From the NCBI RefSeq assembly GCF_044324785.1, contig NZ_CP172127.1: a DNA stretch of 64,000 nt. The stretch is one strand, 5' to 3'. A program made the translations under genes and the position numbers. The stretch is from Escherichia coli (GTDB taxonomy: Bacteria > Pseudomonadota > Gammaproteobacteria > Enterobacterales > Enterobacteriaceae). The notes beneath the pieces were generated by a model. That model saw only the letters and a program-made list of their open reading frames with translations. It ran no database searches and was not told the DNA's origin. Within the stretch, counting starts at the first letter, position 1, and every line of letters begins with the position of its first letter. This document shows positions 1 through 53,051 of the stretch, one piece after another.

Positions 1-199
1 GTGTAAATGGGAGTTTAAAATAGCGAGATGGCTCTTTCACATAAGCAGAGATATTTTCTTTCGGGATAGCGGGTAATACTCCGACTGAGGAAGGCTTATG
101 AATTACTGTATCTGTAGCCGATGCTGTATTTGCCTGGTAAAAACATAGTAACCCCAAGCCAATTATTGCAGCACTTAATCTCAAAAATTTTCTTTCCAT
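1..199 (-). CDS. Partial CDS (N-terminus only; runs off window start): secreted protein with signal peptide, immediately downstream of the BcsA-like gene
   Basis: Reverse strand translates from ATG at 199 as MERKFLRLSAAIIGLGLLCFYQANTASATDTV..., a hydrophobic core followed by an ASA-type cleavage motif; an in-frame ATG also lies at 220. Frame stays open to position 1. Not in the ORF track because it is truncated by the window edge. Confidence 0.4.
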   Translation of the reverse strand, partial: MERKFLRLSAAIIGLGLLCFYQANTASATDTVIHKPSSVGVLPAIPKENISAYVKEPSRYFKLPFT

Positions 200-258
200 T
201 TTAAAAAATTCAACAACCATAATAAATACAAATAATATATTTAATTAGCAATCAGAAA

Positions 259-2379
259 TTAGAACTGACTTTTAGAACTGCCTTTCAGTGTCCGGAGAAT
301 ATAAAAAACCATATTGCAATAACCTTTCAGAGAGATAAAACATATTTCAATAAAACTCTTTAAAATATTGTCTCGTTTAATTTTATCATTCCACTCTTGC
401 CATAGTGAATCACGAGAAAACGTTGCTCTGACATAATTAACATTTTGTTCATGACTCATTGGCATAATCTTCAGACCAATTTTATTATTGTAGGCATGAA
501 CTATTTCTACCGGTATATCACACTTTCCGTTACTATCATCCAGATAAAGAGACAACCGCTGTGTTTTAACAATATTTTTTACGTCGGAGATATTATCAAG
601 GATAACGCCTAATCCTCCTTCGGAAAAATCAAGAACAGAACAAGGATAGCTCCGTCCATCTTCCAGTTGTATAACGCCCTTGAAAGAAACATCAATACGG
701 GGAGAAAAACGCACCTGCTTTTGTTCAATAGAAACAGCCAAAGTTGCGCCAATAATAATTGTATTATAAAACAGCCAAATCAAACAAAAAAAATTCAGGA
801 TGGCGATATGCCCTTGCAAACTATAAACATTAACAATACCTATTATCAGTCCAATTACATTTAAAATGGCAAAAATAAGATAGGGGTAGGAAATTCGCCA
901 GTCAACAAACTTATTTTTTATCAGCCCTCCTTTGGCCGTAACGTTGAAACGCCCTTTTGCTGGTGCAAGTAAAGCTACAAGAGTTGGTAGCGTAATATAC
1001 CAAGCCAGAACCATTTCATAAATCTCATTCCAGAATGAATGTCTGTATTTACCCTGTACTCTTGAATTAGTTAAAATAATAACAAATAAATAAGGTAAAA
1101 CATAAGACATAATATCTGCAACCGATGCTTCGATCAGGTTGACCGAAAAGAAAATAGGACATAACGGTGCGAACAAGAAAATCAGTCGTGGCACACCTGA
1201 TAAAAAATGCATCATGCTGCTGAGATAGCAAAGGCGCTGTGATAATGTCAGCCCCTTGCCCAATAATGGATTGTCAATACGCAAGATTTGAATCATGCCT
1301 CGAGCCCATCGAATCCGTTGTCCAATATGAGCAGACAATGTTTCTGTGGCTAGCCCGGCAGCCAGAGGATAGCGAAGATATGCAGAGCTATAACCTGCAC
1401 GATGCAAGCGTAACGACGTATGCGCATCTTCAGTTACTGTTTCGACTGCAATGCCTCCAACCTCATCCAGAGCAGATCTACGGATGATTGCACATGAACC
1501 ACAAAAAAATGAAGCATTCCATGTATCCGTACCATTCTGGATTAACCCATAAAAAAGGTGTCCTTCATTTGGCTTTTGCCGAAACTGCCCCAAATTTCGC
1601 TCAAAAGGATCGGGGGAAAAAAAATGATGTGGTGTTTGCAACATCGATAATTTTTTATCTGCAATAAACCAGCCCATCGTTTTCTTTAAAAAAGATACCG
1701 AGGGTATATGATCGCAATCGAAAATAGCAACAAATTCGCCATTAGCTATTTTAAGCGCATTATTTATATTTCCGGCCTTAGCATGTTCATGTGTTTCTCT
1801 TGCGACATAGTAAATTCCTGACTCGTTCGCAAATTTCCTGAACTCATCCCTGGCGCCATCATCAAGGATCCAGATATGTAATTTATCCTTTGGCCAGTCT
1901 AAAGCCAACGCACCATAAACTGTATTCTTCACGACTGTAAAAGGTTCGTTATATGTGGGTATTAATATATCTACGATGGGCCATTCTTCTTTATTCTCTG
2001 GTAAAGGTATACTTTCTCTGTTCAGCGGGAAGCAAACCTGAAAGTAACCAAGTAATAAAACAAACCAAGCATACGTTTCAGCAGTTAATAACGTGACTGA
2101 AAATAAGCAGTCTGGAAATTCATTCAGGATGACTGAAGAAGAGTACCGCCACCATAGATATCGGGATGAGATGAGTATTCCAACACCCATTAATATCAGG
2201 GTAATCATCCTTCCCTTGAACAAATTAAGGAAAATGACAGCGATGCAAATAATAATTGAAAATAATATTTGTTGATAAAATCCAAGTGGCTGCTCAACAA
2301 TTGATAAAAAGACAAAACATAGCAATATAGCAACAACCAAAAGGATTTTGTTTAATATTTCTTTATTTTTTAAGATCAT
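259..2379 (-). CDS. Processive family-2 glycosyltransferase, cellulose-synthase (BcsA)-like, with C-terminal PilZ c-di-GMP-binding domain
   Basis: 706 aa with multiple TM segments. Catalytic motifs visible in the translation: IPTYNE, DDG, FDCDH, QTPHHF, FFCGSCAIIRRSAL, TED, QRIRWARG (QxxRW). C-terminal PilZ signature RFSPR...DFSEGG. Gene is visibly AT-rich. Confidence 0.8.
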   Translation of the reverse strand: MILKNKEILNKILLVVAILLCFVFLSIVEQPLGFYQQILFSIIICIAVIFLNLFKGRMITLILMGVGILISSRYLWWRYSSSVILNEFPDCLFSVTLLTAETYAWFVLLLGYFQVCFPLNRESIPLPENKEEWPIVDILIPTYNEPFTVVKNTVYGALALDWPKDKLHIWILDDGARDEFRKFANESGIYYVARETHEHAKAGNINNALKIANGEFVAIFDCDHIPSVSFLKKTMGWFIADKKLSMLQTPHHFFSPDPFERNLGQFRQKPNEGHLFYGLIQNGTDTWNASFFCGSCAIIRRSALDEVGGIAVETVTEDAHTSLRLHRAGYSSAYLRYPLAAGLATETLSAHIGQRIRWARGMIQILRIDNPLLGKGLTLSQRLCYLSSMMHFLSGVPRLIFLFAPLCPIFFSVNLIEASVADIMSYVLPYLFVIILTNSRVQGKYRHSFWNEIYEMVLAWYITLPTLVALLAPAKGRFNVTAKGGLIKNKFVDWRISYPYLIFAILNVIGLIIGIVNVYSLQGHIAILNFFCLIWLFYNTIIIGATLAVSIEQKQVRFSPRIDVSFKGVIQLEDGRSYPCSVLDFSEGGLGVILDNISDVKNIVKTQRLSLYLDDSNGKCDIPVEIVHAYNNKIGLKIMPMSHEQNVNYVRATFSRDSLWQEWNDKIKRDNILKSFIEICFISLKGYCNMVFYILRTLKGSSKSQF

Positions 2380-2463
2380 TATACTTAGCGATTCATTAAC
2401 AATACAGCTTGAATAGTGTGATTTTTATAAACATTGATGACCAATGCCATGCAAATTTAAATA

Positions 2464-3795
2464 TCAACACCACGTTATCTGTGCTCTGCCATTTTGCTTA
2501 CTTTTGTATAACCGTTCATCTGCCAGCAATTTCAACCGTTCAATGTTATTCATGCACTCATCTGTACTGGCAACTCCTATGCTGCAACTACAATTTAACC
2601 CACCGATTGCGAAATGAACAACTCTGTGCAAAATTCTTGATAGTTTATTTTTATCTTTCTCATAATAAATAATAGCAAACTCATCACCGCCAAACCGGTA
2701 TATTTCCCCTTCACGACGGGGTAACTCATCTTTAATAAGGTTAACAAGTTTGATGAGTACTTCATCACCAAACAGATGGCCAAACTTATCATTAATGGTT
2801 TTAAATTTATCCACATCAAATAGACACAGGTAGCCAAAATTCTTGCTCAGCATCTTGATTTCCTTATCAAAACTCCGACGACCAGAAGCCCGAGTTAATG
2901 CATCACAAGTGCCAAAGTCATATATCTCTCGAATTGCATTAATCTCTTCCGTATTAAAGAATAGATTTTCTCCACATAAATCATATTGATGATTCGATAA
3001 TATAGATTCTTTTTCCAATCTACCCTTATTTATAATATTTCGTAGTAATTTAATATAATAAACATACAGTATAACTGCAGATATTGCCGATGCAAAAACG
3101 AATAGCATACATATATAGAGATATTTACTTTTTTTATAGGCAACAATAAACATCATTTCTGGAAGGTAAGAATACGACAGAGTGATAGCTGACATCTCAA
3201 ATACAGCATCATTTATCAAAAAATCATCACCTGTGATTTTCTTTTCATTATCATTAATATCATAAAATGAGATATAGATATCTTCTCGTTCCCCTGACTG
3301 ATTTCTAATCAAAGATAAATAACGTTCAGGATCTACCACTGATATCAAAATTGTTCGTTTGGCAATGGGATGAGCATAATAAACATAGTACTTATCTTTT
3401 AAACCAATAACACCTCTCTCAAATTCGTTCATTACTCGAATAGAGGAAACTATGTCGCCACAAAAATCATCCCCTTTCGTTGTAACTTTGATACATTTAC
3501 CATCGCTAATAATATAAGGACCGAGATCATACAAATATCCAGGATTTTCATAGCCAGCAAAGCTATTGCGTATTTTTTTTACCAATTCTTCTGGGGCAAT
3601 ATCTAGTTCATAAAATATATCATTAGATACTGAGCGGCGATACTCAGAAACATTAGCTATTGCAAGCCCACTATCTACAATAGATACCTTCACCGAATTA
3701 ATGCGGCCCTTAACATAAATGGTGTATAAATAACAAGTTACTACAGCGACGAACAAAAAACAGATTACTGCCGCCTTTTTCTTATATTTGAACAT
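2464..3795 (-). CDS. Membrane-anchored diguanylate cyclase (GGDEF domain) with predicted periplasmic sensor region
   Basis: 443 aa; N-terminal TM, ~190-aa loop, second TM, then a GGDEF domain with an intact RFGGDEF motif. No obvious RxxD I-site immediately upstream of the motif. AT-rich; 4-bp gap to the upstream EAL gene. Confidence 0.8.
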   Translation of the reverse strand: MFKYKKKAAVICFLFVAVVTCYLYTIYVKGRINSVKVSIVDSGLAIANVSEYRRSVSNDIFYELDIAPEELVKKIRNSFAGYENPGYLYDLGPYIISDGKCIKVTTKGDDFCGDIVSSIRVMNEFERGVIGLKDKYYVYYAHPIAKRTILISVVDPERYLSLIRNQSGEREDIYISFYDINDNEKKITGDDFLINDAVFEMSAITLSYSYLPEMMFIVAYKKSKYLYICMLFVFASAISAVILYVYYIKLLRNIINKGRLEKESILSNHQYDLCGENLFFNTEEINAIREIYDFGTCDALTRASGRRSFDKEIKMLSKNFGYLCLFDVDKFKTINDKFGHLFGDEVLIKLVNLIKDELPRREGEIYRFGGDEFAIIYYEKDKNKLSRILHRVVHFAIGGLNCSCSIGVASTDECMNNIERLKLLADERLYKSKQNGRAQITWC

Positions 3796-3799
3796 TGCT

Positions 3800-6148
3800 T
3801 TATTTTCTTTTTTTCGGTTTGCTGTCTATATGCCATTCTGAAAACGGTAGCGGTTTCTGGTATAAGTATCCCTGAACATGAGAGAATCCTAATTTTTGCA
3901 ATTCTCTGGCCTGACTTTCAGTTTCAACACCTTCAGCTATTACCGGCATATTTTCTTCACGAGCAAGGCTGGATATAAAGTACACAATTTTGTTAGTTTC
4001 GTTGAAAATACCAGAGGTAAACTCTGAATCAATTTTAATACTATCAGGTCTTACTTTATAAAGTTTTTTCAGGTCAGCTAATCCACTACCGAAATCATCA
4101 AGAGAAATCTTGATACCGTTTTCTTTTAAAATGTTTATATTATTGTAAAAGCTATCATTTATATCTTTTACTGCTGACTCGGTGATCTCCAGACAGATTT
4201 GTTCAGCATTTACATCAAATGCATTAATTAAAGTAAGAACACGAGTGTGGAAGTCAATTTCATTTAATTGCCATGGAGAAACATTGATATGCAGGAGAAA
4301 ATCGTTAGCAACCTCATATTCACGGCTAAAGGCACCAAATTCGCTAATAGCCGTTTCGAGAATAAAATCACCCAGTTCTTTAATTAATCCTATTTCTTCA
4401 GCAACAGGTACAAAAATTGATGGCGGTATTGCCCCATTTTCGACGGATAACCAGCGGCATAACGCCTCAGCACCGACAACCCTATTATTATCCATATCAA
4501 CAATCGGTTGATATACTAAATAAAGTTCACTACTCAAAATCGCTTTTTTTATATTTCCTGCCACCCAGACCTTTTGATCAAGTTCATGAACTTTGATATC
4601 ATCATAAAACATAAATTCAGATTCTTTATTTTCCCGCATAGCTGTTAATGCCAGTTTCAACTTCCCTTCATAAATCGAAACATTTTCCCCTGAAAAAGTT
4701 TCACAAATGGCAATCTTATGAATATAAATATTTCTTATGCAAAATATATGTTCAGGGAAGTTTAAAACAGATAATCTTTCGATGAACTCTTCGCAGTGCG
4801 TGTGGCACAGCAACAAGTATGTTTCAGTTGAGAATTTTACGATATCACAATATTTTGAATATTTTTGTGAAATCTTCGATTTTATATCATTAACAATTTC
4901 ATAAAATTTCTGACTTCCATATATCGCCTCAACAAACTCTAATCCATAGATGCAAAGCATACCAACTGCCAAATAGGTTTTATTATTAGTTTCAATAACA
5001 GCCTTATTAATATAGAAACAACTTCCTTGTTCATAGGACACAAGATTAAGTAAACGGTCCATACGCTCCTTGTATTTATCACTGATATTATTAATGATTT
5101 TTTTGAGTTCAACAATTTCGCTACTATCATTTTGCACAATATCAATTGTGTCATTGCGATATACTGAGTTAGCTAATTTTTTCAGATGTTCTATTAGTTT
5201 ACTGGATTCTCGTTTAATTTTTTTTGTTATATTTTCAACGATATACCATAATAAACAGAAACAAACCAAGCCACATAAAAACATCAATGTAAAATATTTA
5301 TTGATGTTTGCATCTTCTGCTTTTTGATAGTAAAAGTAATGGAATCTGACATCAGGAAGCCTGGGGAGTGAGATAATATTGTCTGTATAGTTTCCACTAT
5401 TATTACTTATGTTATAACTTCCCGATGACTCACGGACAATAAGATGTAACATTGATTTTTCATTACCTACCATTATCCTTTTATTTTGTTCCATGAATAG
5501 AATATCAGCATCACTACCTAGTTTATTTAAAAAATTACTGAAATATTTTTCATCAAGATCCAGATGCATTAACTTCAGAGCAAATGAATCTTTTTCTTCT
5601 TCGGATGGCCGTAGTGAAAACGAAAAACATTTTTTTCCGGCAATACCATAACAATTATACCATGGTGACCATTTTGAATAAGTCCCTGCCGGTAATTTAT
5701 TCCAGGGGCGTGATTCCGGGTTAAAGTAGTTATCGCTAATATTACCATCGTCCCCAATAAAAGGTTTGCCGGCTTCTGATTTCCCCAGGAATTTTACCTC
5801 ACCATCCTCAGTTCGAATAAAGCTAAGATAGTTTCCATTATTGAGCATTATCCCTACTAAATTAACAGCGTCTATTTTTTTCATGCGATGAAGGACTGCT
5901 CGCTTTATTTCACCTTCATCATTTAACAGATAAATTGCATCTTTTAATGCATCAGCCTCTTTTTCAACTTTAGAAAAAAAATTATTCAAATTGTTATTGA
6001 TGAGTATAAGGTTAATCCGTGAAGAGTTTTCTGCTATTTTTTTATGGAAGTCAATTGCGGTAATAAATGAAAAGACAATATAGACAGTAACAGCTAATAT
6101 AACCGCAGTGTTAAATCTTGAGTTTAATTTTTCGGTAATGCTATACAT
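3800..6148 (-). CDS. Membrane sensor c-di-GMP phosphodiesterase (EAL domain) with large periplasmic region
   Basis: 782 aa; two TM segments flanking a ~260-aa loop. C-terminal EAL domain with conserved YQPIVD, GAEALCRW, EITES, LDDFGSG, IKIDSEF, AEGVETE and QGYLYQKP motifs. First gene of an apparent three- or four-gene minus-strand operon. Confidence 0.8.
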   Translation of the reverse strand: MYSITEKLNSRFNTAVILAVTVYIVFSFITAIDFHKKIAENSSRINLILINNNLNNFFSKVEKEADALKDAIYLLNDEGEIKRAVLHRMKKIDAVNLVGIMLNNGNYLSFIRTEDGEVKFLGKSEAGKPFIGDDGNISDNYFNPESRPWNKLPAGTYSKWSPWYNCYGIAGKKCFSFSLRPSEEEKDSFALKLMHLDLDEKYFSNFLNKLGSDADILFMEQNKRIMVGNEKSMLHLIVRESSGSYNISNNSGNYTDNIISLPRLPDVRFHYFYYQKAEDANINKYFTLMFLCGLVCFCLLWYIVENITKKIKRESSKLIEHLKKLANSVYRNDTIDIVQNDSSEIVELKKIINNISDKYKERMDRLLNLVSYEQGSCFYINKAVIETNNKTYLAVGMLCIYGLEFVEAIYGSQKFYEIVNDIKSKISQKYSKYCDIVKFSTETYLLLCHTHCEEFIERLSVLNFPEHIFCIRNIYIHKIAICETFSGENVSIYEGKLKLALTAMRENKESEFMFYDDIKVHELDQKVWVAGNIKKAILSSELYLVYQPIVDMDNNRVVGAEALCRWLSVENGAIPPSIFVPVAEEIGLIKELGDFILETAISEFGAFSREYEVANDFLLHINVSPWQLNEIDFHTRVLTLINAFDVNAEQICLEITESAVKDINDSFYNNINILKENGIKISLDDFGSGLADLKKLYKVRPDSIKIDSEFTSGIFNETNKIVYFISSLAREENMPVIAEGVETESQARELQKLGFSHVQGYLYQKPLPFSEWHIDSKPKKRK

Positions 6149-7247
6149 ACTGGTGTTCTGACTAAAATGTTATCAATAGCTTTAATATAAGATCGTATAA
6201 AGTTCTGTATATTAGCCGATGTTACCCTCCTCTTTATGACTTTCTTAATTTCATTATCCCCATATAACAAATATGTCATGATGAGAAGATTAATTTTTTC
6301 TTAATTTCCACAAGTGATTATCATGCTTCTTATTTTAACCAGAACAATATTGTTATATGTAACACTCATCTTTGTATCTTTCACCCACGCTACCGCCTTT
6401 CGTTAATCATTCAACGAAATAATTTAGATATGAAAAAATTACCCTGTAACAACACAACTAGCACATCCTGCCGAGTTGTGACATCTACTCTATAATTATC
6501 CAAAAGAGGTATTAGTATCTATTGTCAGTAATCCATTCTGTTTATTTATCTTATTTAAGACATGTGTAATACGACTCTCTTAGCCCAAATATATTAATCA
6601 GTAACTTTAAAGTAAGATTTAGTCAGAAAGTGATCGTGAAAATTTCACTGCCCAGGCTGTAATTTGTCCATCAACCTAACAGATAAATATTTTCAGGAAC
6701 ACACGTTCGATAAAACAATAGATGCAACATTAGAGCACTATTTTATTTTTAAAACAAAAGACTGTGAACTACACCAGGCATGAGAAGATTCTGTCGTGAG
6801 ATGATTTTTTCCAGATTAAAACACTATAAAATATAACTTTTACAGAATATTACGCCAGTAAATCAATATGCCATCTGCATATTCAAACAATAACTGCAAT
6901 CATTCTCAGCAAATTTAACCATAATTAGCAACGTGCAAATTCATTGATGCAGATCAAAAATCCGAGTTTACATTACCAATCTTTGTTGAAAATTTAGCCG
7001 TAAAAATCATGTTATTACTATACGCAAGAGTTTACTCCAGAGCCCAAAATAATAACTTGCAAAATAACCAATAATTAAAACTATCACCATATCTAAAAAT
7101 AAAGGTCTCCGATAACTAAAATTCGTATTATCACGGTAGCGTTGATATTCTTCCATCTCTTAAGAAAAACTTAACTTTTACCCTATCAGGCCTGATCTAA
7201 TTTTAAACTATTTGATATCATAGCCCCGGCGAACCGGGGCATGATGA

Positions 7248-8678
7248 CTATTTTGTATTCGCTTTACGTGCAAGCAGCGGGAATATCAGCCCCAGTCCAA
7301 CGAGGACAAATGGCGTAGTTATGTTCAGTGCCAATTGGAATGTCCACTCTGCAGTGAAGGCTTCCATTTTAGGGAAAATTCCTGTCAGGCAGGCAAAAGC
7401 GGTAAAGGCAAAACACCAAATTCCGACGGTCATTGCCAGCGGCTTATTACGAATAAAGACATATTCCGGCTTATATTTCTGCGCCAGGCGAACAACTGCA
7501 ATAAATGCAACAAATACCCATAAATAACGCAGCGGCATCACTACCGAGTTAAGATTCAACAGCCATTTATAGAGATTGTTCATATCACCAATGCCGAGAG
7601 TCGGCAGCATTATCAGGATCGCCACCAGCACCAGGGTCAGAAAATAGCCATTAACGGGCGTACCAGAAGCGTTGGTACGACATAAACTGGCTGGAATATA
7701 TTTGCTGTCAGCATCGCCTAATAACACTTTAAGCGGCGCATCAATCGAGAATACCAGCGCAGCTACTTGTCCCAGGGTATTCGCAATGGCATAAATCACC
7801 ATTAAAGTATTACCCATGTTGTAATACTCGCCCAGCTTCTGAAAGGCGTAATACTGACCGTTAGTCATTAAGTCATCCGGGATATTACGCGAGTCAAACA
7901 TCATCCCCATCGCCAGTGAGCCCAGAATGGCACAAACCGCAACCATCACCGCCAGACATAACATCCCTTTTGGAAATTCTTTTCCTGGGTTGCGCGTTTG
8001 ATTAACGTAAGGAGAAATCTTCTCTGCTCCGCCAACCGCGAAAACCAGCATTGAAATAGTGGTAATGTAGGTAAAGTCGATATGAGGAATGAACGTTTCC
8101 CAGGTAATGTTTGTGGTCGCAATATGCACTTCAGTAATCGCAGGCGCGGTTACCGCCATCGCCACATACAGGAGCGACATAACAAACATCGCAATCCCTG
8201 CCACAGAACCGACGATTTTCAGCGATTTCATACCGCGTGAAGCAACCCACATAAAGAAGATAAACAGCACCAGCGTTAACCCCTGTAACGCTACGACTGA
8301 ATATTCTTTGATTAGCGAACCGTCGCCTTTCATCGCCCAACCGAGCGCAATCAGTATTGCCTGGGGTTTTTGTGCCAGATAGGGAATATGCACTACCCAG
8401 TAGGTCCACGCGGCGAGGTAAGCCAGTCCGGGTCCCATCGTGTGTTTAATCCAGGTACTGACCCCGCCCTTCCCATCTTTGAAGGTCGAGCCTAACTGAC
8501 CAACAATTAGCGCATAAGGTGTGAAATAGAGCGCAAAGATAAACACCCACGAAAAAACAACCACCAGCCCCTGGTTGGCGTAGTTATTAACAACGTTGCC
8601 AAAACCCCAGACAGTGATAAAAGACATCAGCGCAATGTTGTACCATCGCAGCTGTTTTTCCTGAACATTCCCAGCCAT
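7248..8678 (-). CDS. ycaM: Putative amino-acid/polyamine transporter YcaM
   Basis: The ORF-track frame extends to 8870, but the internal Met at 8678 (MAGNVQEKQLRWYNIALMSF...) gives 476 aa, matching the YcaM length as I recall it. Multi-TM permease. Confidence 0.8.
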   Translation of the reverse strand: MAGNVQEKQLRWYNIALMSFITVWGFGNVVNNYANQGLVVVFSWVFIFALYFTPYALIVGQLGSTFKDGKGGVSTWIKHTMGPGLAYLAAWTYWVVHIPYLAQKPQAILIALGWAMKGDGSLIKEYSVVALQGLTLVLFIFFMWVASRGMKSLKIVGSVAGIAMFVMSLLYVAMAVTAPAITEVHIATTNITWETFIPHIDFTYITTISMLVFAVGGAEKISPYVNQTRNPGKEFPKGMLCLAVMVAVCAILGSLAMGMMFDSRNIPDDLMTNGQYYAFQKLGEYYNMGNTLMVIYAIANTLGQVAALVFSIDAPLKVLLGDADSKYIPASLCRTNASGTPVNGYFLTLVLVAILIMLPTLGIGDMNNLYKWLLNLNSVVMPLRYLWVFVAFIAVVRLAQKYKPEYVFIRNKPLAMTVGIWCFAFTAFACLTGIFPKMEAFTAEWTFQLALNITTPFVLVGLGLIFPLLARKANTK

Positions 8679-8887
8679 AGACAAATCCTTCGCCAAAATT
8701 AAAGGGGCATCTGTAAAACGAGGGATTATGCGCGGCAAATAAGAAGTGCGGAAATAGCGAAATGCAAAATTATAACCTGCTGCACATTTTATTTTGAAAC
8801 GAATAAAATTTGGAAAAAAGCAAGTCAGAGAGAAGAAACAGAAAAGCAGAGTGTGAAACAGTAAGTTCACACTCTGCGTTAATTCAT

Positions 8888-10036
8888 TTACACGTGAGCA
8901 ACGGGTTTCGGCGTATGACCGGCGTTGCGAAGCAGCATCAGCAAATAGATAAACGATACGCTGGCGATCATGATAAACAATAAATTATCGGAGAAATTCT
9001 GCATTAGCATGGCAGTAAATGACGGGCCAAGCAGACTTCCCACAGTATAGCTCAACAGTAAGGCCTGGTTCATCGCCACCAGTTGATGATGTTCAACTTT
9101 CTCGCAAGCCCATGCCATCGCCACCGGATATAGCGTAAAGCCAGCGGCACCGAGGATGAATAACGCTGGGGCCATCGCCGCCTGGCTAAGCATCGCGATA
9201 CTGCCGAGAATGACGACAAAGACCTGAACACGCAACACCAGCAGTCGACCAAACTTATCCGCCAGACGTCCGATCGGCCATTGTCCGAGGATACCCGCAC
9301 TGACCAGTACCGCCATCCAGAAACCAATGCTGGCATTGCTCACCCCTTTGTGATTGAGGTACAGCGGCATCAGGCCATATAGAGATCCCAGCACGATTCC
9401 TGAGATAATGCAGCCATTCACGCCAAGCCGCGCCTGACGGAGTTTTAGCATTGACGTAATTGACGTCGAATCATGGTTTTCAGCCTGCTGATTCAGCACA
9501 CGCGTAAACAACAGCGGTAAGATCCCTGCCAACGTCAAACCTGTAACCCACGGCAATACGCTCATCAGCTCGGTTGAGACTTTGCTGACCAGTAACTGGC
9601 CTAAAAACGTTCCCACGTAATAAACCATCATGTATGCGGCAAGCAAACGCCCACGGTTACGTGACGTCCCACTGCACATCAGCGCGCTCTCAACGACTAC
9701 CCAAATCATGGCACAGCCGACGCCCGCGACAAAACGCCACGCCAACCAGCTCCAGAAACCAATCATCAGGCCAAGGCCGACACAGCCAGCGGCAAAAATG
9801 AAGGAGGCCAGATAATAGCTGCGGTTAAAGCCAATGCGCTTAATGACATACCCTGTCAGCAATGTACCGACCAGGTTGCCGGTAAAATAGGATGAGCTGA
9901 CAACGCCTACCTGCCATGTGGACATGTGTTCCTGGGCGAGCCAAAGCGGCACGAGTGTATTTAACACTGCGATCGCCAGAGTCAACAAAAGCAGGCCAGA
10001 CAGCAAAAGCATGACAGGCCGGGTATACGTGGACAT
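8888..10036 (-). CDS. ycaD: MFS transporter YcaD
   Basis: 382-aa 12-TM protein; sequence and position between ycaM and ycaC match K-12 synteny. Confidence 0.85.
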
Positions 10037-10350
10037 GAATTAAAACCGTGAGGAAGTTCAAATTTCATGCGCATCATGCCACCGCCAAAAACATTGTCAA
10101 TGGGTGAAAATACGCGCATATCGCAGCGGAGGTATTATCGATTTATATTACTCATTCATAACGCTAATGCTGGAGAGACGATTAATCTCATCTGATTGTT
10201 TTTATTGATCTAACACAAATTTCATACGCTTCGTTCAGTCGAAAAATTTCATGGTCACAGCAAACTCATATTTCCCGTCTATGCTTTCAGAGCAATGCAT
10301 CGCGTCTGACCGATTTCAGACGTACCACTGACTCTCGAAAGGAGAAGAGG

Positions 10351-10977
10351 ATGACCAAACCGTATGTTCGTCTTGATAAAAATGATGCTGCCGTTTTGCT
10401 TGTTGATCACCAGGCTGGTTTACTTTCCCTTGTACGGGATATCGAACCCGATAAGTTTAAAAATAACGTGCTGGCGCTGGGTGACCTGGCTAAGTATTTC
10501 AACTTACCAACTATTCTTACCACCAGTTTTGAAACCGGTCCTAACGGCCCATTAGTTCCAGAACTGAAAGCACAATTCCCCGATGCACCTTACATTGCTC
10601 GCCCGGGCAATATTAACGCCTGGGATAACGAAGATTTTGTAAAAGCAGTCAAAGCGACAGGTAAAAAACAGTTAATTATTGCCGGTGTGGTAACCGAAGT
10701 TTGCGTGGCATTCCCGGCGCTTTCAGCCATTGAAGAAGGGTTTGACGTCTTTGTCGTGACTGACGCGTCAGGGACCTTTAATGAAATTACCCGGCATTCG
10801 GCATGGGATCGCATGTCGCAAGCTGGTGCGCAATTGATGACATGGTTCGGCGTGGCGTGCGAGCTGCATCGCGACTGGCGTAATGATATTGAAGGACTGG
10901 CGACGTTGTTCTCTAACCATATTCCTGATTATCGTAATTTGATGACCAGTTATGACACGTTAACGAAGCAGAAATAA
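10351..10977 (+). CDS. ycaC: Isochorismatase-family hydrolase YcaC
   Basis: 208 aa; RBS-like GGAGAAGAGG upstream; conserved position next to dmsC. Confidence 0.85.
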   Translation: MTKPYVRLDKNDAAVLLVDHQAGLLSLVRDIEPDKFKNNVLALGDLAKYFNLPTILTTSFETGPNGPLVPELKAQFPDAPYIARPGNINAWDNEDFVKAVKATGKKQLIIAGVVTEVCVAFPALSAIEEGFDVFVVTDASGTFNEITRHSAWDRMSQAGAQLMTWFGVACELHRDWRNDIEGLATLFSNHIPDYRNLMTSYDTLTKQK

Positions 10978-10982
10978 AAGAG

Positions 10983-11004
10983 AACCGGGGCCGAAACCCC
11001 GGTT
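10983..11004. terminator. Hairpin between convergent ycaC and dmsC (candidate bidirectional terminator)
   Basis: aaccgggg-ccgaaa-ccccggtt perfect 8-bp stem directly after the ycaC stop. Confidence 0.5.
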
Positions 11005-11011
11005 GTTATGA

Positions 11012-11875
11012 TTAGCTTGCGACGGCCATCCCCACGGTCATATGCAAACCATAGAATACGCCACGACCGATTAATTCCCCTGCCAGAAGCAGAATGAATG
11101 ATACGGATAGTAGCGGAACCGCAGGCTGATAACCTTTTAGCTGTGGTGCAATCCACAAACACAGGGCAACAGCCAAAAGCACGATCCGCCAGGACATCAG
11201 CGCACCATAGTCCGGCACCAGCGCTGCGGCCTGCTGCACAGAGCTATGAATAGTCGCCAGCTCTGCGCCCTGCATCACTGACACCACGCCACTCACTACC
11301 AGGGCCAGTACAGAAATGGCTGGCAGCAGACGCATCGCCCAGCCATCGACGCCAGCCAGACTCAGCAACAGGTAACCCAGTAACGGGCCGCCCATAAACA
11401 TCGTCAGGAAGAAGCCCATCGGCGTCCAGATGCTGTACCAGGTCGGAACGGTATCAATGCTGTTATACACACGCACCATCATCCAGACAAAGATGACGCC
11501 AAGAACCATCGTCACTATCAGCCACAGCGTACGCAATGCCGGTGACAGCTTTTTCAGCATTGCCAGCAACCAGCCGATGCCACCAACAGCAAAAAAGATC
11601 GAACCGCTGGCGATTTCGTTACTGAGTGCTGAAGCCCCTACCCGGTTGAGCGAGTTAAAGGCGCGCATCGGTGAACCAAGATGAAGCATAGAGGCGATAA
11701 AGCCAATGCCCATCAGCACCCATAAACCAAACATGCAGGCAATAACACGCTGCTGGGCTTCTGCTCGCAGGTCGCCTTTGAGCAGCGCCAAAGCCAGAAC
11801 GATAAAACTACCCGCTACACATTGCCCGAAGACCGTGAAGATCATCAGCGGCCATTCATGCCATCCACTTCCCAT
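11012..11875 (-). CDS. dmsC: DMSO reductase membrane anchor subunit DmsC
   Basis: Multi-TM protein. Start placed at the internal Met (MGSGWHEWPLMIFTVF...), which overlaps the dmsB stop as in K-12; the ORF-track frame extends to 11938. Confidence 0.8.
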   Translation of the reverse strand: MGSGWHEWPLMIFTVFGQCVAGSFIVLALALLKGDLRAEAQQRVIACMFGLWVLMGIGFIASMLHLGSPMRAFNSLNRVGASALSNEIASGSIFFAVGGIGWLLAMLKKLSPALRTLWLIVTMVLGVIFVWMMVRVYNSIDTVPTWYSIWTPMGFFLTMFMGGPLLGYLLLSLAGVDGWAMRLLPAISVLALVVSGVVSVMQGAELATIHSSVQQAAALVPDYGALMSWRIVLLAVALCLWIAPQLKGYQPAVPLLSVSFILLLAGELIGRGVFYGLHMTVGMAVAS

Positions 11876-11876
11876 C

Positions 11877-12494
11877 TCACACCTCCTTCGGGTTTGCCAG
11901 ATAGCCAGTGGTATCCCCGGTCGGGCGGCTGTTGGCATTGGGTTTGATCACAATATTCGGTTTGGTAAAGTGAGCTCGCGGCAACGGCGCAACGGCCGCC
12001 AGATCGCCATGTTTTTTACGCAGCTCGTCGATAGGGCCGAAATCCAGCGCCCGCAGCGGGCAAGATTCAACACAGATCGGCTTTTTCCCCTCCGCAACAC
12101 GGTCATAACAACCATCGCATTTGGTCATATGGCCTTTCGTTTCGTTATATTGCGGTGCGCCATACGGGCAAGCCATATGGCAGTAGCGGCAGCCAATGCA
12201 CACATCTTCATCGACCACAACAAAACCATCTTCACGTTTATGCATCGCACCGCTCGGGCAGACTTTAGTACAAGCCGGATCTTCGCAGTGGTTACATGAA
12301 ATCGACAGATAGTAGGCAAACACGTTCTGATGCCAGACACCGTTATCTTCCTGCCAGTCACCGCCAGCATATTCATAAATGCGGCGGAAGCTGACTTCCG
12401 GCGTCAGATCTTTATAGTCTTTACAGGCCAGCTCGCAGGTTTTGCAACCGGTGCAACGGCTGGAATCAATAAAAAATCCATACTGGGTTGTCAT
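11877..12494 (-). CDS. dmsB: DMSO reductase iron-sulfur subunit DmsB
   Basis: 205 aa with four Cys-rich ferredoxin-type motifs (CxxCxxCxxxCP). Confidence 0.9.
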   Translation of the reverse strand: MTTQYGFFIDSSRCTGCKTCELACKDYKDLTPEVSFRRIYEYAGGDWQEDNGVWHQNVFAYYLSISCNHCEDPACTKVCPSGAMHKREDGFVVVDEDVCIGCRYCHMACPYGAPQYNETKGHMTKCDGCYDRVAEGKKPICVESCPLRALDFGPIDELRKKHGDLAAVAPLPRAHFTKPNIVIKPNANSRPTGDTTGYLANPKEV

Positions 12495-12504
12495 CGGTTA
12501 CTCC

Positions 12505-14949
12505 TTACACCTTTTCAACCTGAACAAGGTTTGTATGTGACGGATTCCCCTTAGCGAGAGGAGACGGACGTTGAGTGGTCAGTACGTTGATACAACCGCC
12601 CTTATCGACACGTTTTGCATCCGGGTCATACCAGGCACCTTCACCCAGTGCGACCACACCCGGCATCATTCGTGGCGTCACTTTCGCCTCAATATGAACC
12701 TCACCACGGTCGTTAAAGATCCTGACCTTATCGCCGTTGTTGATACCGCGTTTTTGTGCATCAAGCGGGTTGATCCACATTTCCTGACGGCAAGCTGCTT
12801 TCAGCACATCAACGTTGCCGTAAGTTGAGTGAACGCGAGATTTATAGTGGAAGCCAGTAAGCTGCAGCGGATATTGTTTGTTCAGCGGATCCTGATAACT
12901 TTCAAAGCCCGGCGTGTAGATCGGCAGTGGATCGATCACGTCGCCTTCTGGCAATTCCCAGGTAGCGGCAATGTCAGCCAGCGCCTGCGAATAAATCTCA
13001 ATTTTACCCGATGGCGTGGTCAGTGGATTTGCCTGCGGATCTTCACGGAAGGCTTTATAAGCAACGTGATGCCCTTGTGGGTCGCGCTTTTTAAAGATCC
13101 CCTGCTTGCGGAACTCTTCAAACGTTGGCAGTTCAGGAATCGCTTCCCGCGACTGGGCATACAGATGCCGCATCCACTCTTCCTGGGTACGGCCTTCAGT
13201 AAACTGTTGCTCAACGCCAAGACGTTTTGCCAGTTCGCTGGTCATTTCATAGATGGTCTTACATTCAAAGCGCGGTTTAATCACCTGATCGTTGAAAATC
13301 ACGTAAGACATATTCCCGCAGGATGCATCCAGTGCAAAGTCCATCTGTTCGGAAGCGGTGCAGTCAGGTAGCAGGATGTCAGCATATTTCGCCGATGAGG
13401 TCATGTGGCAGTCGATAACCACAATCAGCTCGCACTTCTTATCATCCTGAAGGATTTCATGGGTACGGTTGATTTCAGAATGCTGGTTAATCAGGCAGTT
13501 ACCGGCATAGTTCCAGATCATTTTGATCGGCACATCCAGCTTATCTTTCCCGCGCACACCATCACGCAGCGCCGTCATTTCCGGGCCACGTTCAATGGCA
13601 TCGGTCCACATAAACATAGAAATGCTGGTCTGGATCGGGTTTTCGAGGGTCGGCATACGGACAAACGGTAAGCTGTATGAACCTTCACGCGCGCCGCTGT
13701 TCCCTCCATTAATACCAACGTTACCGGTCAGAATCGCCAGCATCGAGATAGCACGGGTTGCGATTTCACCGTTAGCGTGACGCTGCGGGCCCCATCCCTG
13801 GCTGATAAACGCCGGTTTGGTACTACCGATTTCACGAGCCAATTTGATGATTTTGTCTGCCGGAACACCGGTGATTTGCGAGGCCCATTCCGGCGTTTTA
13901 GCCACGCCATCTGGCCCTTCACCCAGAATATAAGCTTTATAGTGACCATTTTTCGGCGCACTGGCTGGCAGTGTTTTCTCGTCGTAGCCAACGCAATATT
14001 TATCGAGGAATGCCTGATCCACCAGGTTTTCGGTGATCATGACATACGCCAGACCGTTAACCAGTGCGGCATCTGTTCCCGGACGAATAGGGATCCACTC
14101 ATCTTCACGCCCGGCACCGGTGTCGGTATAGCGCGGATCGATGATGATCATGCGAGCATTAGATTTCTGGCGCGCCTGTTCAAGATAGTAAGTCACCCCA
14201 CCGCCACTCATTCGCGTTTCGCCAGGGTTATTACCAAACAGCACTACCAGCTTACTGTTTTCGATATCCGACGGGCTGTTACCATCTGCCCAGCCGCCGT
14301 AGGTATAGTTCAAACCTTCCGCAATTTGCGCGGAAGAGTAGTCACCGTAATGGTTCAGATAACCGCCGCAGCAGTTCATCAGGCGCGCGACCAGGGTATT
14401 TCCCGGCGGCCAGGAGCGGGTCATGGTACCGCCCAGCGTACCGGTGCCATAGTTCAGATAGATAGACTCGTTGCCGTACTCTTTGATAAGGCGCTGCATA
14501 TTGGTCGCGATGATGTCGTAGGCTTCTTCCCAGCTAATGCGCTCGAATTTGCCTTCACCGCGCGCCCCGACTCGTTTCATCGGATATTTCAGGCGGTCCG
14601 GATTGTAGACACGGCGACGCATGGAACGACCACGCAGACAGGCGCGCACCTGGTGCAGGCCGTCATAGTTGTCATCGCCAGTATTATCCGTTTCAACATA
14701 TTTGATTTCACCGTCCACGACGTGCATACGTAGCGGGCAGCGACTACCACAGTTAACTGTACAGGCGCTCCAGATAACCTTTTCGTCTGATTTTGTTGGA
14801 ATGGCGCTATCGACAGCGTGCGCAATCCGACTAAAAGGTAATGTTAATGCGCTGCTGGCCATTGCCAGGCCGCCGATCGCTGTCGTTTTTACCAAACCAC
14901 GGCGACTCACCTCAGCAGCCAATACCGCATCAGGGATTTTCGTTTTCAT
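12505..14949 (-). CDS. dmsA: DMSO reductase catalytic subunit DmsA (molybdopterin oxidoreductase)
   Basis: 814 aa; twin-arginine signal (SRRGLVKTTAIGGLA); molybdopterin oxidoreductase fold. Confidence 0.9.
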   Translation of the reverse strand: MKTKIPDAVLAAEVSRRGLVKTTAIGGLAMASSALTLPFSRIAHAVDSAIPTKSDEKVIWSACTVNCGSRCPLRMHVVDGEIKYVETDNTGDDNYDGLHQVRACLRGRSMRRRVYNPDRLKYPMKRVGARGEGKFERISWEEAYDIIATNMQRLIKEYGNESIYLNYGTGTLGGTMTRSWPPGNTLVARLMNCCGGYLNHYGDYSSAQIAEGLNYTYGGWADGNSPSDIENSKLVVLFGNNPGETRMSGGGVTYYLEQARQKSNARMIIIDPRYTDTGAGREDEWIPIRPGTDAALVNGLAYVMITENLVDQAFLDKYCVGYDEKTLPASAPKNGHYKAYILGEGPDGVAKTPEWASQITGVPADKIIKLAREIGSTKPAFISQGWGPQRHANGEIATRAISMLAILTGNVGINGGNSGAREGSYSLPFVRMPTLENPIQTSISMFMWTDAIERGPEMTALRDGVRGKDKLDVPIKMIWNYAGNCLINQHSEINRTHEILQDDKKCELIVVIDCHMTSSAKYADILLPDCTASEQMDFALDASCGNMSYVIFNDQVIKPRFECKTIYEMTSELAKRLGVEQQFTEGRTQEEWMRHLYAQSREAIPELPTFEEFRKQGIFKKRDPQGHHVAYKAFREDPQANPLTTPSGKIEIYSQALADIAATWELPEGDVIDPLPIYTPGFESYQDPLNKQYPLQLTGFHYKSRVHSTYGNVDVLKAACRQEMWINPLDAQKRGINNGDKVRIFNDRGEVHIEAKVTPRMMPGVVALGEGAWYDPDAKRVDKGGCINVLTTQRPSPLAKGNPSHTNLVQVEKV

Positions 14950-15141
14950 AATGGCTCACTCAAGCTTGCTCACGATTGATTCCAGTAACAAACCGTATTG
15001 TGTAATTATTTCTATAGCAGGTCGCTATATAGGCTTGTATACATCGAATAATTTGAAAATCAAAGAGATAGGTAGATTTTCACTCGAAAGTAGTATTACG
15101 TGTAAGTGAGGAGTAATTATTGTTCGGTATCAAAGGGAGAC

Positions 15142-15167
15142 AAAAAAAGCGCCCGCAGGCGCTTTTT
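15142..15167 (-). terminator. Rho-independent terminator downstream of serS
   Basis: caaaaaaagcgcccgcaggcgcttttt: GC-rich stem with an A-run on one side and a T-run on the other; sits between the serS stop and the dmsA upstream region. Confidence 0.6.
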
Positions 15168-15187
15168 AGATTCAGAAAAATTGGGTA

Positions 15188-16501
<1,314 letters not shown>

Positions 16502-18666: not shown

Positions 18667-19421
<755 letters not shown>

Positions 19422-19525
19422 ATCAGCATACTTGTCCTTAGCCTTCTGCAGTGACAGCTGGTAGTACAGCGTGCTTCTGGCCAGCCCTGCAGCCTTTAAC
19501 AGGTCAGACTGGCAGTGTCCGCACC

Positions 19526-20056
19526 TCAGGCTCCGGATGACTTTCGTTTTTTCTCCAGCTCCTGGCGCTTTTTTTCCAGGAGATGCTCCTGCATGGCTTT
19601 CAGATATGCATTTTCTGCGCGAAGATAACGCAGCTCATTCTTCATCTCTTCCGGCGTCATGTTTGCCTCGTTTTCATGGGTATCATCAGAACGGGTCATG
19701 CTTTTCTCCTTCCTGCGCCTGATAAAGGCCTCATTACCAGATTTGCGGTAGCCTTTTATCCAGTTTTTAACCGTGTTGTGGCTGGGAATGTTAAACCGGG
19801 CAGCTACCCGGGGTAGAGACTCAGAATGCCCGAGAGCATAAAGAACCACGCAAAGTTTATCTTCAGGAGAATAGCTACGCTTGTGTCTGCAATCCAGTGC
19901 CCGAGGACCGTGAAGAAGAAAAAGATTAATCCAGTGTGAGAGGCTGGTGTGAGAAAGTTGAAAGAGTTTTGCCGTAGAAATGATGCCTGCATGACCAGCC
20001 AGGTAATGATTTACAGCGGCAAGTTTTACTTCAAATGAATGTTTCATAAACTGCAC
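19526..20056 (-). CDS. IS3-family transposase OrfA (HTH DNA-binding)
   Basis: 176 aa with an HTH region and a C-terminal leucine-zipper-like coiled coil (ELRYLRAENAYLKAMQEHL). Confidence 0.75.
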   Translation of the reverse strand: MQFMKHSFEVKLAAVNHYLAGHAGIISTAKLFQLSHTSLSHWINLFLLHGPRALDCRHKRSYSPEDKLCVVLYALGHSESLPRVAARFNIPSHNTVKNWIKGYRKSGNEAFIRRRKEKSMTRSDDTHENEANMTPEEMKNELRYLRAENAYLKAMQEHLLEKKRQELEKKRKSSGA

Positions 20057-51314: not shown

Positions 51315-52093
51315 TACAAAATCTCTGCAAATCGATATTTTAATTTATTAAAAATACTCAGGCCCACAATTGTCAGGACTAAACCTGTAATGTAAAGGAT
51401 TGAAATATATTCATAATTTAAGACGCCATCCATGAACAGCTGCCGCCAGCTGAGGATCATGCTTGCCAGAGGATTATAGGTAATAATCCAGCTAAATTTT
51501 TCAGGAATCATATCTGACGCATATAATATCGGCGTGCAATAAAACATGAGCATGATACCAAGGCTGACAAATCGCTCTAAATCCCTGAAGAACAGATTTA
51601 GCGTAGAAAATATGATTGAAATACCAAATGTAAAAATCACCTGACCAAGCGCAATAATTGGTACGCCCCAGAGCCATGAGAGCGATGGACGCATACCATA
51701 CACGAACAGGAATGCAATAATCACAGGAATTGTACACAAGAAATGTACCCCTTCCATCATGACATTACTCAATGGAATAACTGAGCGCGGAAAAACTGTT
51801 TTTTTGATTATTTGCGCATTGGCTATAAACGAAAACAAGGAATTTGTCGCCGAGCTGGCAAACCATTGCCACGGAAATAAACCGGTAATCAAGAAAAGGG
51901 TATAATTCGGGATCTGCACTCGCATAACGAGCTTAAAAATGAAATAATATATCATTGCAAAAAGCAGTGGATTCGCAATTGACCATAAGTAACCAAATAC
52001 GCTGCTTTTATAACGTACCTTTAAATCTTTGTTTGTTATAACAACAAGAAGATCAAACAAATACCCTATATTATACTTCATTTTTATACTCAT
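51314..52093 (-). CDS. wzm: O-polysaccharide ABC transporter permease Wzm
   Basis: 259 aa; six-TM ABC-2-type permease; stop overlaps the wzt start. Confidence 0.9.
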   Translation of the reverse strand: MSIKMKYNIGYLFDLLVVITNKDLKVRYKSSVFGYLWSIANPLLFAMIYYFIFKLVMRVQIPNYTLFLITGLFPWQWFASSATNSLFSFIANAQIIKKTVFPRSVIPLSNVMMEGVHFLCTIPVIIAFLFVYGMRPSLSWLWGVPIIALGQVIFTFGISIIFSTLNLFFRDLERFVSLGIMLMFYCTPILYASDMIPEKFSWIITYNPLASMILSWRQLFMDGVLNYEYISILYITGLVLTIVGLSIFNKLKYRFAEIL

Positions 52094-52390: not shown

Positions 52391-52402
52391 CACGCTACCG
52401 CC
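52391..52402 (-). promoter_or_regulatory. ops element (RfaH recruitment site, part of a JUMPstart) in the leader of the wzm operon
   Basis: Plus strand reads cacgctaccgcc; its reverse complement is the exact ops sequence GGCGGTAGCGTG, on the operon strand about 300 bp upstream of wzm. Confidence 0.7.
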
Positions 52403-53051
52403 ATTGGCTATCGCAACCAAAATGCGGACTCCCCTCTCTAAAGTGTCTGTCTTACCCGGTCTTACCGTAACGAAGAGGATACGCTCGTCGTTAGCTCCAC
52501 AAGCATTACCGGCGCAGCATTCATGAAGCCACAAACAGCCTAGTCAGCGTTCGGCAAAAAAGCTAAAAACAAACGGATATCTGTACTCAGCGCCCCTCTC
52601 CGGACTCACATCCATCGCTACACCGCAACAAATGCACCGCTACTTTCCCCAGTTTATGGCATCCTATCCATCAGGACTTTCTCATTTCACCCTTGAAACC
52701 AACAAAAAGCGTCACTCTCGGCAGTATGACTTCAACAGCCATGTAGCTGGGCGCTCCGCATCTCTACATGAGTCAGGCAGAGTATTAAGTTCGCGGGCAG
52801 GCAGCGGCAACACCACCAGGATAACGTACTTCCTCATCCTATCTTGCATAAAAGTGAATTTGACTTTTCTTCAAAAGTGGTCAAATCCGAGCGTCGTAGG
52901 GTACGTTTGCTGCGCATTATCAATAATGCATCCGTAGGACGTGAATTACGCGCGCATTATAGCTCTGGTCTGGAAGAATAAAAATGAAAAAGCATGACCA
53001 ATCCATCCAGCCAAAAAATACTGAAGTGGTCAACAAAAACTGGCCACCGAG

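Follow-up and report, generated by a model that had tools for sequence, protein, structure and literature searches.

The locus studied here raises a simple question: what is the role of the long gene-free interval that precedes an accessory cellulose (bcs) operon in the genome of Escherichia coli? The stretch that was analysed, referred to as the window, consists of 64,000 nucleotides of contig NZ_CP172127.1. The interval covers positions 6149–7247 and comprises 1099 bp between the start of an EAL open reading frame (ORF) at 6148 and the stop codon of ycaM (7248–7250), both on the minus strand. The initial annotation of the window had described a gap of ~1.1 kb at exactly these coordinates, and read it as the AT-rich leader of a horizontally acquired operon, of a kind that is commonly a target of H-NS silencing and has complex promoters. 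We suggest that the interval is likely an RfaH-dependent cis-regulatory leader of a mobile accessory cellulose operon of ~12 kb. In all likelihood, the operon is a target of RfaH that has not been described before.

The ops element and the adjoining hairpin

The leader contains the sequence GGCGGTAGCGTG at positions 6397–6386, a 12/12 match to the ops element, the recruitment site of RfaH. The element is located on the minus strand, i.e., it reads as ops on the sense (non-template) strand of the EAL-GGDEF-bcsABC genes. It follows the predicted transcription start site by ~337 nt and precedes the ATG of the EAL gene by 237 nt, downstream of a conserved promoter and in the untranslated leader, outside any conserved ORF or Pfam remnant. 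Letter for letter, the same 12-mer is the ops12 oligonucleotide, GGCGGTAGCGTG, that is used for studying RfaH recruitment, and all RfaH-controlled operons have a 12-nt ops in their leader, which is read on the non-template strand (PMC5995543). In strain CFT073, all ops sites on the non-template strand of leaders are bound by RfaH (8/8), while ops sites inside coding regions are not (PMC9765446). Further, an ops in the leader suffices to bring a foreign lux operon under the control of RfaH (PMC7593976).

For the extended 20-mer around the element, the expected count in the window is 0.00, also when three mismatches are allowed. The pattern GGCGGTAGnnTG has exactly two copies in the window, and both are found on the sense strand in leaders of AT-rich polysaccharide operons. 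The operon itself, ~12 kb long, contains a single ops, the one in the leader. Together with its length, its AT-richness, its acquired origin and its role in exopolysaccharide synthesis, this gives the operon the profile that is typical of an RfaH target, and we consider it likely that the site is functional.

The ops is part of a conserved block of ~40 nt (6427–6382), in which a hairpin, UUUCGUUGA-loop-UUAACGAAA (6419–6398, minus strand), is followed without a gap by GGCGGTAGCGTGGG. The 3' end of the hairpin abuts the ops, i.e., it ends 0 nt before it. Except for the loop, the block is invariant in all four lineages in which the chromosomal leader is found, i.e., three lineages of E. coli and Escherichia fergusonii; besides these four there is one monomorphic plasmid lineage, described below. 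The loop varies among the lineages in both sequence and length, with 7 or 8 unpaired nucleotides between the UUUCGU and ACGAAA arms. An invariant stem with so variable a loop fits an RNA hairpin better than a protein site of fixed spacing. The folding z-scores are modest, from -1.4 to -2.3. Nascent hairpins located 11–12 nt behind the RNA 3' end have the geometry at which pause hairpins affect a paused polymerase, and with a pause at U11 of the ops the hairpin in the bcs leader would sit at this distance from the RNA 3' end. Because a perfect and conserved ops is preceded by a hairpin, the arrangement points to control of transcript elongation, beyond control of initiation alone.

Two other candidates that involve the ops were rejected. 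A long-range pairing of the ops with the complementary ACGCTACCG (~7143–7135) is not conserved in MS21-1 and E. fergusonii, and the complementary sequence lies upstream of the predicted start. A small antisense ORF of 30 amino acids (aa), which crosses the ops on the plus strand, has only the residues encoded by the ops in common with E. fergusonii.

Conservation of the leader in E. fergusonii

In E. fergusonii (JAIBOS010000001.1, locus 6916–16080) the same module is found between a TetR-family (RutR-like) gene and tusA/yedE. The EAL protein is 68% identical, bcsC is missing and the gene-free leader is 1085 bp long. Since the module keeps a leader of ~1.1 kb at an unrelated site, the leader and the operon move as one unit. 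The interval is not a chance spacer, as the operon has a leader of similar length (1085–1099 bp) in both of its unrelated chromosomal locations.

Within the leader of E. fergusonii, only the promoter and the block of hairpin and ops are kept. Outside these conserved elements, segment-wise global alignments of the E. coli and E. fergusonii leaders give identities of 42–51%, compared with 43–47% for shuffled sequences, i.e., the remainder is at the level of shuffled sequence. A blastn search with the E. fergusonii leader against the E. coli genomes gives no match. Motif scans of genome and metagenome contigs for further lineages return only the same four, plus unrelated chance matches of high GC content.

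A predicted promoter and a predicted non-coding leader RNA

A predicted sigma-70 promoter, TTCACA-N17-TAAAAT, is located at 6768–6740 on the minus strand (-35 hexamer 6768–6763, -10 hexamer 6745–6740), with a predicted start at ~6733. In all four lineages it has the highest score of any sigma-70 site, and neither the hexamers nor the 17-nt spacing change between them, while the sequence of the spacer differs in E. fergusonii. The promoter is found 324–343 nt upstream of the ops, and this distance is kept (324 vs. 342–343 nt) despite the randomised sequence in between. The chance that the exact promoter is the predicted one is about even in our judgement. The complex promoters proposed in the initial annotation are not what promoter prediction returns: the leader contains fewer promoter-like sites than shuffled sequences (2 vs. 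7.5 ± 2.8), and a single sigma-70 site is conserved, instead of a complex set.

From the position of the promoter, an untranslated 5' leader RNA of ~585 nt (6149–6733, minus strand) is predicted. Its overall folding is ordinary (z = -0.62). That the interval has no convincing ORF, as first annotated, is borne out by all comparisons. The two longest ORFs, of 51 aa (6124–6279, minus strand) and 49 aa (7007–7156, minus strand), are both frameshifted in sister lineages, and a six-frame comparison of the leaders finds no conserved ORF of at least 20 aa among the four lineages. The longest stop-free segments of the leader have no Pfam match above threshold, and RefSeq has no annotation within the leader in nine genomes. 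A conserved protein-coding gene in the interval, which would speak against a regulatory leader, was thus looked for across the four lineages and not found. Rfam scans of the leader, made over 1.6 kb and over 151 nt with permissive filters and a cut-off of E<=10, return only noise, and no intrinsic terminator is scored in the leader.

A weak promoter-like site, TATACA-N16-TATATT (9/12), is found at 6184–6211 on the minus strand, between the ops and the EAL start codon and 35 nt away from the latter. It is partly conserved and, if it were active, its transcripts would bypass the loading of RfaH. Promoter-like matches of 9/12 are many across the AT-rich island.

Translation initiation and H-NS context

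The EAL, GGDEF, bcsA and bcsB genes do not have Shine-Dalgarno (SD) sequences, the energies of their duplexes with the anti-SD sequence being +0.2 to -2.2 kcal/mol. For neighbouring core genes the energies are -4.1 to -8.7 kcal/mol in 7/8, and -2.4 kcal/mol in ycaD. By sequence comparison, the translation-initiation region of the EAL gene (6138–6173, minus strand) is conserved, and its anti-SD energy is that of a region without an SD sequence. The KOW domain of RfaH recruits 30S subunits to SD-less leaders (PMC5995543). The host factor is present, as rfaH is found in 5425 of the 5426 complete E. coli genomes.

The GC content is 31.7% in the leader and 34.7% in the island genes, compared with 50.7% in the flanking core genes, i.e., the leader is acquired DNA with a composition of the H-NS type. 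The interval is therefore as AT-rich as first annotated when compared with the core, but not unusually so within its surroundings; since the island genes are also low in GC, the leader shares the AT-richness of the island as a whole and exceeds it only a little. Judged from this composition, H-NS silencing of the leader is plausible, and it would fit the coating of all eight RfaH targets of CFT073 by H-NS-StpA (PMC9765446).

Comparison with known systems

The JUMPStart/ops leaders of K-12 waaQ and rfb, and of a second site in the window (52402–52391), share the identical GGCGGTAGCGTG with the bcs leader, in all cases within untranslated leader sequence and on its sense strand. In K-12 waaQ, the 12-mer GGCGGTAGCGTG is found inside the annotated rirA RNA. 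Each of the JUMPStart leaders, like the bcs leader, heads a long AT-rich exopolysaccharide operon. The hairpin ends 1 nt before the ops in waaQ, rfb and the second site of the window, and 0 nt before it in the bcs leader. However, the hairpins are unrelated, UUUCGUU...AACGAAA in the bcs leader and the conserved CUGGUAGC...GCCAG in JUMPStart. The distance from ops to ATG is 40–67 nt in wzx, kps and rfa (PMC9765446), compared with 237 nt in the bcs leader. The bcs element thus combines a canonical ops with a JUMPStart-like architecture, but its sequence does not place it in the JUMPStart family.

The second perfect ops in the window, GGCGGTAGCGTG at 52402–52391 on the minus strand, has a canonical JUMPStart hairpin and is located in the leader of the genes at 52093–44179. 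It is found ~297 nt upstream of an accessory polysaccharide cluster that is flanked by insertion sequences (IS) and contains an ABC-transporter permease and ATPase, a DUF4422 protein, glf and three glycosyltransferases. This cluster is found in ~305 of the 5426 E. coli genomes.

The bcs leader also resembles the leader of hlyCABD in uropathogenic E. coli. Both are long and horizontally acquired, with an ops that is distant from the start codon and promoters hundreds of nucleotides upstream. In hlyCABD, the ops is ~600 nt from the start codon, the promoters are 0.77 and 1.6 kb upstream of hlyA, and the H-NS-silenced operon is rescued by RfaH (PMC9765446). However, the cargo is a toxin in hly while it consists of cyclic di-GMP (c-di-GMP) enzymes and a cellulose synthase in bcs, and the dependence on RfaH is proven for hly and predicted for bcs.

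The island has the same type of gene cluster as the BcsA2/BcsA3 clusters, in which homologues of YliE/YliF are found beside bcsABC, on the chromosome or on plasmids, only in Escherichia (Romling lab preprint, 10.1101/2025.05.09.653004). The preprint deals with genes and phylogeny only; the words RfaH, ops, H-NS, upstream and intergenic are absent from its text, which describes neither the leader nor the ops site in it. The paralogous pair pdeI-dgcI (yliE-yliF) of K-12 has the same order and near-identical lengths (782 and 442–443 aa) as the first two genes of the island. However, its upstream region is only 177 bp long and does not contain an ops, and no bcs genes follow downstream.

The plasmid-borne sister cluster

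A related bcs cluster is found on plasmids. Its EAL protein is 37% identical to the chromosomal one, and its leader cannot be aligned to the chromosomal leader. The plasmid leader has the ops-like sequence GGCGGTAGCGTT 270 nt upstream of the EAL gene, at a position similar to that of the chromosomal ops. A hairpin is found 1 nt upstream of GGCGGTAGCGTT, and perfect TATAAT boxes are found 60–80 nt upstream. The plasmid leader is monomorphic, with at least 99% identity.

Three mutually dissimilar hairpins, i.e., those of the canonical JUMPStart, of the chromosomal bcs leader and of the plasmid bcs leader, all end 0–1 nt before the ops, which would put each of them 11–12 nt behind the RNA 3' end of a polymerase that pauses there. 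It can be speculated that a hairpin directly before the ops is a real functional unit for RfaH loading, which has been assembled repeatedly from unrelated sequences and here gates c-di-GMP enzymes and a cellulose synthase. We regard this as possible but doubtful. If it is true, elongation control and counter-silencing would be tied to second-messenger signalling and the biofilm matrix in some Escherichia.

In 129 E. coli genomes a bcs leader of the plasmid type is found, and about half of these match only the first 42–55% of it. The partial matches are 215 nt long in most cases among the matches listed, and include the promoter and the ops-like site. In pHS30-1 (NZ_CP029493.1, 1625–4558), the partial leader is followed by IS1, which has removed the EAL phosphodiesterase gene; after IS1 come a shortened GGDEF gene, bcsA and bcsB. 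The loss of the phosphodiesterase in plasmid clusters appears to be either recurrent or clonally spread.

Alternative explanations

Several observations weigh against an RfaH-dependent leader. The Rfam model RF01707 of the 39-bp JUMPStart element (CAGCGcAcUGGuAGC...gCCAgG followed by the ops) does not match the bcs element at E<=10, neither in the 1.6-kb nor in the 151-nt scan, while the positive control at 52391–52427 of the window is found with 25.6 bits and E = 0.0025, below the gathering score. The hairpin stem has no compensatory changes, so that an RNA structure is indistinguishable from plain sequence conservation. The predicted distance from start to ops, ~337 nt, is far above the ~45 nt at K-12 waaQ, and NusG or Rho could come into play ahead of such a distant ops. 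In the sense RNA of the leader, G exceeds C, so an obvious C-rich Rho-utilisation signature is not apparent. The composition of the leader is not accompanied by an enrichment of specific H-NS features, as both high-affinity H-NS motifs (4 vs. 3.0 ± 1.9 in shuffled sequences) and A/T tracts (8 vs. 6.6 ± 2.5) show no excess over composition. The plasmid ops-like site has T for G at position 12. All validated E. coli RfaH targets keep TG at positions 11–12, although a G12C mutant of ops still recruited RfaH in vitro (PMC5995543). Finally, the comparative power is limited, because there are only four lineages and one plasmid lineage.

If the interval were a generic xenogeneic spacer, i.e., AT-rich DNA coated by H-NS and containing several weak promoters, control would occur at initiation only and the ops match would have no role. 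The 68% AT of the leader, which is like that of the whole island, and the many 9/12 promoter-like matches across the island agree with such a spacer, and H-NS binding is likely anyway, as all known RfaH loci are H-NS targets (PMC9765446). However, the leader has fewer promoter-like sites than shuffled sequences (2 vs. 7.5) and its H-NS motifs and A-tracts are not enriched over composition. A generic spacer also leaves unexplained why a 40-nt block of hairpin and ops and one promoter survive in a leader that is otherwise randomised, and we find it unlikely. Also rather unlikely is an ops that is a non-functional relic or a hitchhiker, for instance acquired by recombination with a polysaccharide JUMPStart, and that persists fortuitously or for a different reason, such as protein binding to the DNA. 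A relic would be in line with the lack of a JUMPstart match in Rfam, with a hairpin that does not covary and with the long distance from the predicted start, but it does not sit well with a 12/12 match that four lineages have retained while substitutions have reached saturation in the rest of their leaders. Further, an independent ops-like site is found at the same relative place in the non-alignable plasmid leader, both the orientation and the location of the ops in the leader are correct, and the variation of the loop length (7 vs. 8 nt) argues against a dimeric DNA site of fixed spacing.

The long leader could instead hide a gene, either for a small membrane protein, the 49-aa ORF at 7156–7007, or for a small RNA in a distal conserved block (7136–7046). 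Here the evidence is that the ORF has a hydrophobic stretch in this lineage and that the block holds the longest invariant run of the leader. However, a frameshift disrupts the ORF in MS21-1 and E. fergusonii does not have it, the nucleotides are conserved without any codon pattern, and the distal block folds worse than shuffled sequences on both strands (z = +1.8 and +0.8) and has no match in Rfam or Pfam. A hidden gene is thus very improbable. The predicted untranslated region is long (~585 nt) and is found in a c-di-GMP-related gene context, so a riboswitch or another structured cis-regulatory RNA, e.g., a c-di-GMP riboswitch, could be imagined as well. This is extremely improbable: neither c-di-GMP-I/II (GEMM) nor any other Rfam family is found in the permissive scans described above, the folding energy is ordinary, and nothing beyond the promoter and the ops is conserved in E. 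fergusonii.

Proposed mechanism and implications

For the RfaH-dependent leader, we propose the following course of events. Transcription would start near 6733 at the conserved sigma-70 promoter (6768–6740), and RNA polymerase would then cross ~335 nt of untranslated leader. At this point a hairpin would form in the nascent RNA and the polymerase would pause at the ops, GGCGGTAGCGTG (6397–6386), on the non-template strand. RfaH could then load on the paused polymerase and displace NusG. The modified polymerase would proceed through the remaining 237 nt of the leader and then through the AT-rich genes over ~12 kb, and withstand pausing, Rho termination and H-NS/StpA roadblocks on the way. Finally, the KOW domain of RfaH may aid in recruiting ribosomes to the SD-less genes. 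Regulators that control initiation probably bind in the ~450 bp that precede the promoter and contain a strongly conserved block of 90 bp.

The RfaH regulon of K-12 consists of two operons. In CFT073, the regulon consists of eight operons (PMC9765446). Such regulons define which acquired surface and virulence operons escape silencing by H-NS and Rho. If the leader is dependent on RfaH, a module for biofilm matrix and c-di-GMP would join the small RfaH regulon of E. coli, and the expression of a 12-kb operon with 65–70% AT and without SD sequences would be explained. For work on the BcsA2/BcsA3 clusters, rfaH and the ops offer a concrete and testable handle. The hairpin beside the ops, which is not of the JUMPStart type, is further a natural variant for probing the role of the hairpin in RfaH loading. 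The proposal extends a known kind of regulation with a non-canonical hairpin, while the concept of RfaH/ops control is unchanged.

The operon and the island

The operon has the order pdeI-like, dgcI-like, bcsA, bcsB, bcsC, spans ~12 kb and contains 65–70% AT. The first gene (3800–6148, minus strand) encodes a CHASE9-EAL phosphodiesterase, a paralogue of PdeI (YliE) with 39% identity to K-12 PdeI, both proteins being 782 aa long. The second gene (2464–3795, minus strand) encodes a GAPES2-GGDEF diguanylate cyclase, a paralogue of DgcI (YliF) with 42% identity. The third gene (259–2379, minus strand) encodes BcsA, an accessory cellulose synthase that carries a PilZ domain, and bcsB and bcsC are located beyond the left end of the window. 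CHASE9-EAL and GAPES2-GGDEF genes beside bcsA(PilZ)-bcsB-bcsC, outside the core bcs locus, are the arrangement of an accessory bcs cluster. The genes form a co-directional set on the minus strand, and the interval (6149–7247, minus strand, 1099 bp, non-coding) thus heads an EAL-GGDEF-synthase operon, as initially annotated.

Compared with K-12, an island segment of ~13 kb takes the place of ycaN-ycaK between pflA and ycaM (window 1–7222 vs. K-12 locus 6661–8259), i.e., it replaces these genes instead of inserting beside them. Of the 5426 complete E. coli genomes, 9 have the island, and these fall into three sequence lineages; together with the other chromosomal site in E. fergusonii this agrees with the horizontal acquisition assumed at first. 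The strains that bear the island include N3, MS 21-1 and 06-00048. Between the E. coli lineages, the leader is 75–94% identical and the island genes 83–95%, while the core flanks are 97–99% identical. Since the leader and the island genes diverge while the flanks do not, the leader belongs to the island. In strain N3, the leader is 100% identical to that of the window, the GGDEF gene has a 9-nt indel and dmsA is 1.1% divergent.

At the upstream end of the leader, a distal conserved block (7136–7046, minus strand) contains invariant runs of 26 nt (7136–7111) and 42 nt (7087–7046) with a repeated GTGATA(A/G)T. This block is unique to the island and is the longest invariant stretch of the leader among the E. 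coli lineages. It is located ~370 nt upstream of the -35 hexamer, and is weakly recognisable in E. fergusonii from a weak collinear similarity. The block is non-coding and is probably a platform for regulator binding or a distal promoter.

At or next to the junction of island and core, directly past the stop codon of ycaM, there is a GC-rich hairpin, GCCCCGGCGAACCGGGGC (7223–7240), which is 100% conserved in the lineages that bear the island. K-12, in which ycaN directly adjoins ycaM, lacks this hairpin. Because the hairpin has no T-run, it is not scored as an intrinsic terminator, and there may be read-through from ycaM past the hairpin into the leader. Elsewhere in the window, ORFs for IS3-family transposases (18699–20056) adjoin lolA.

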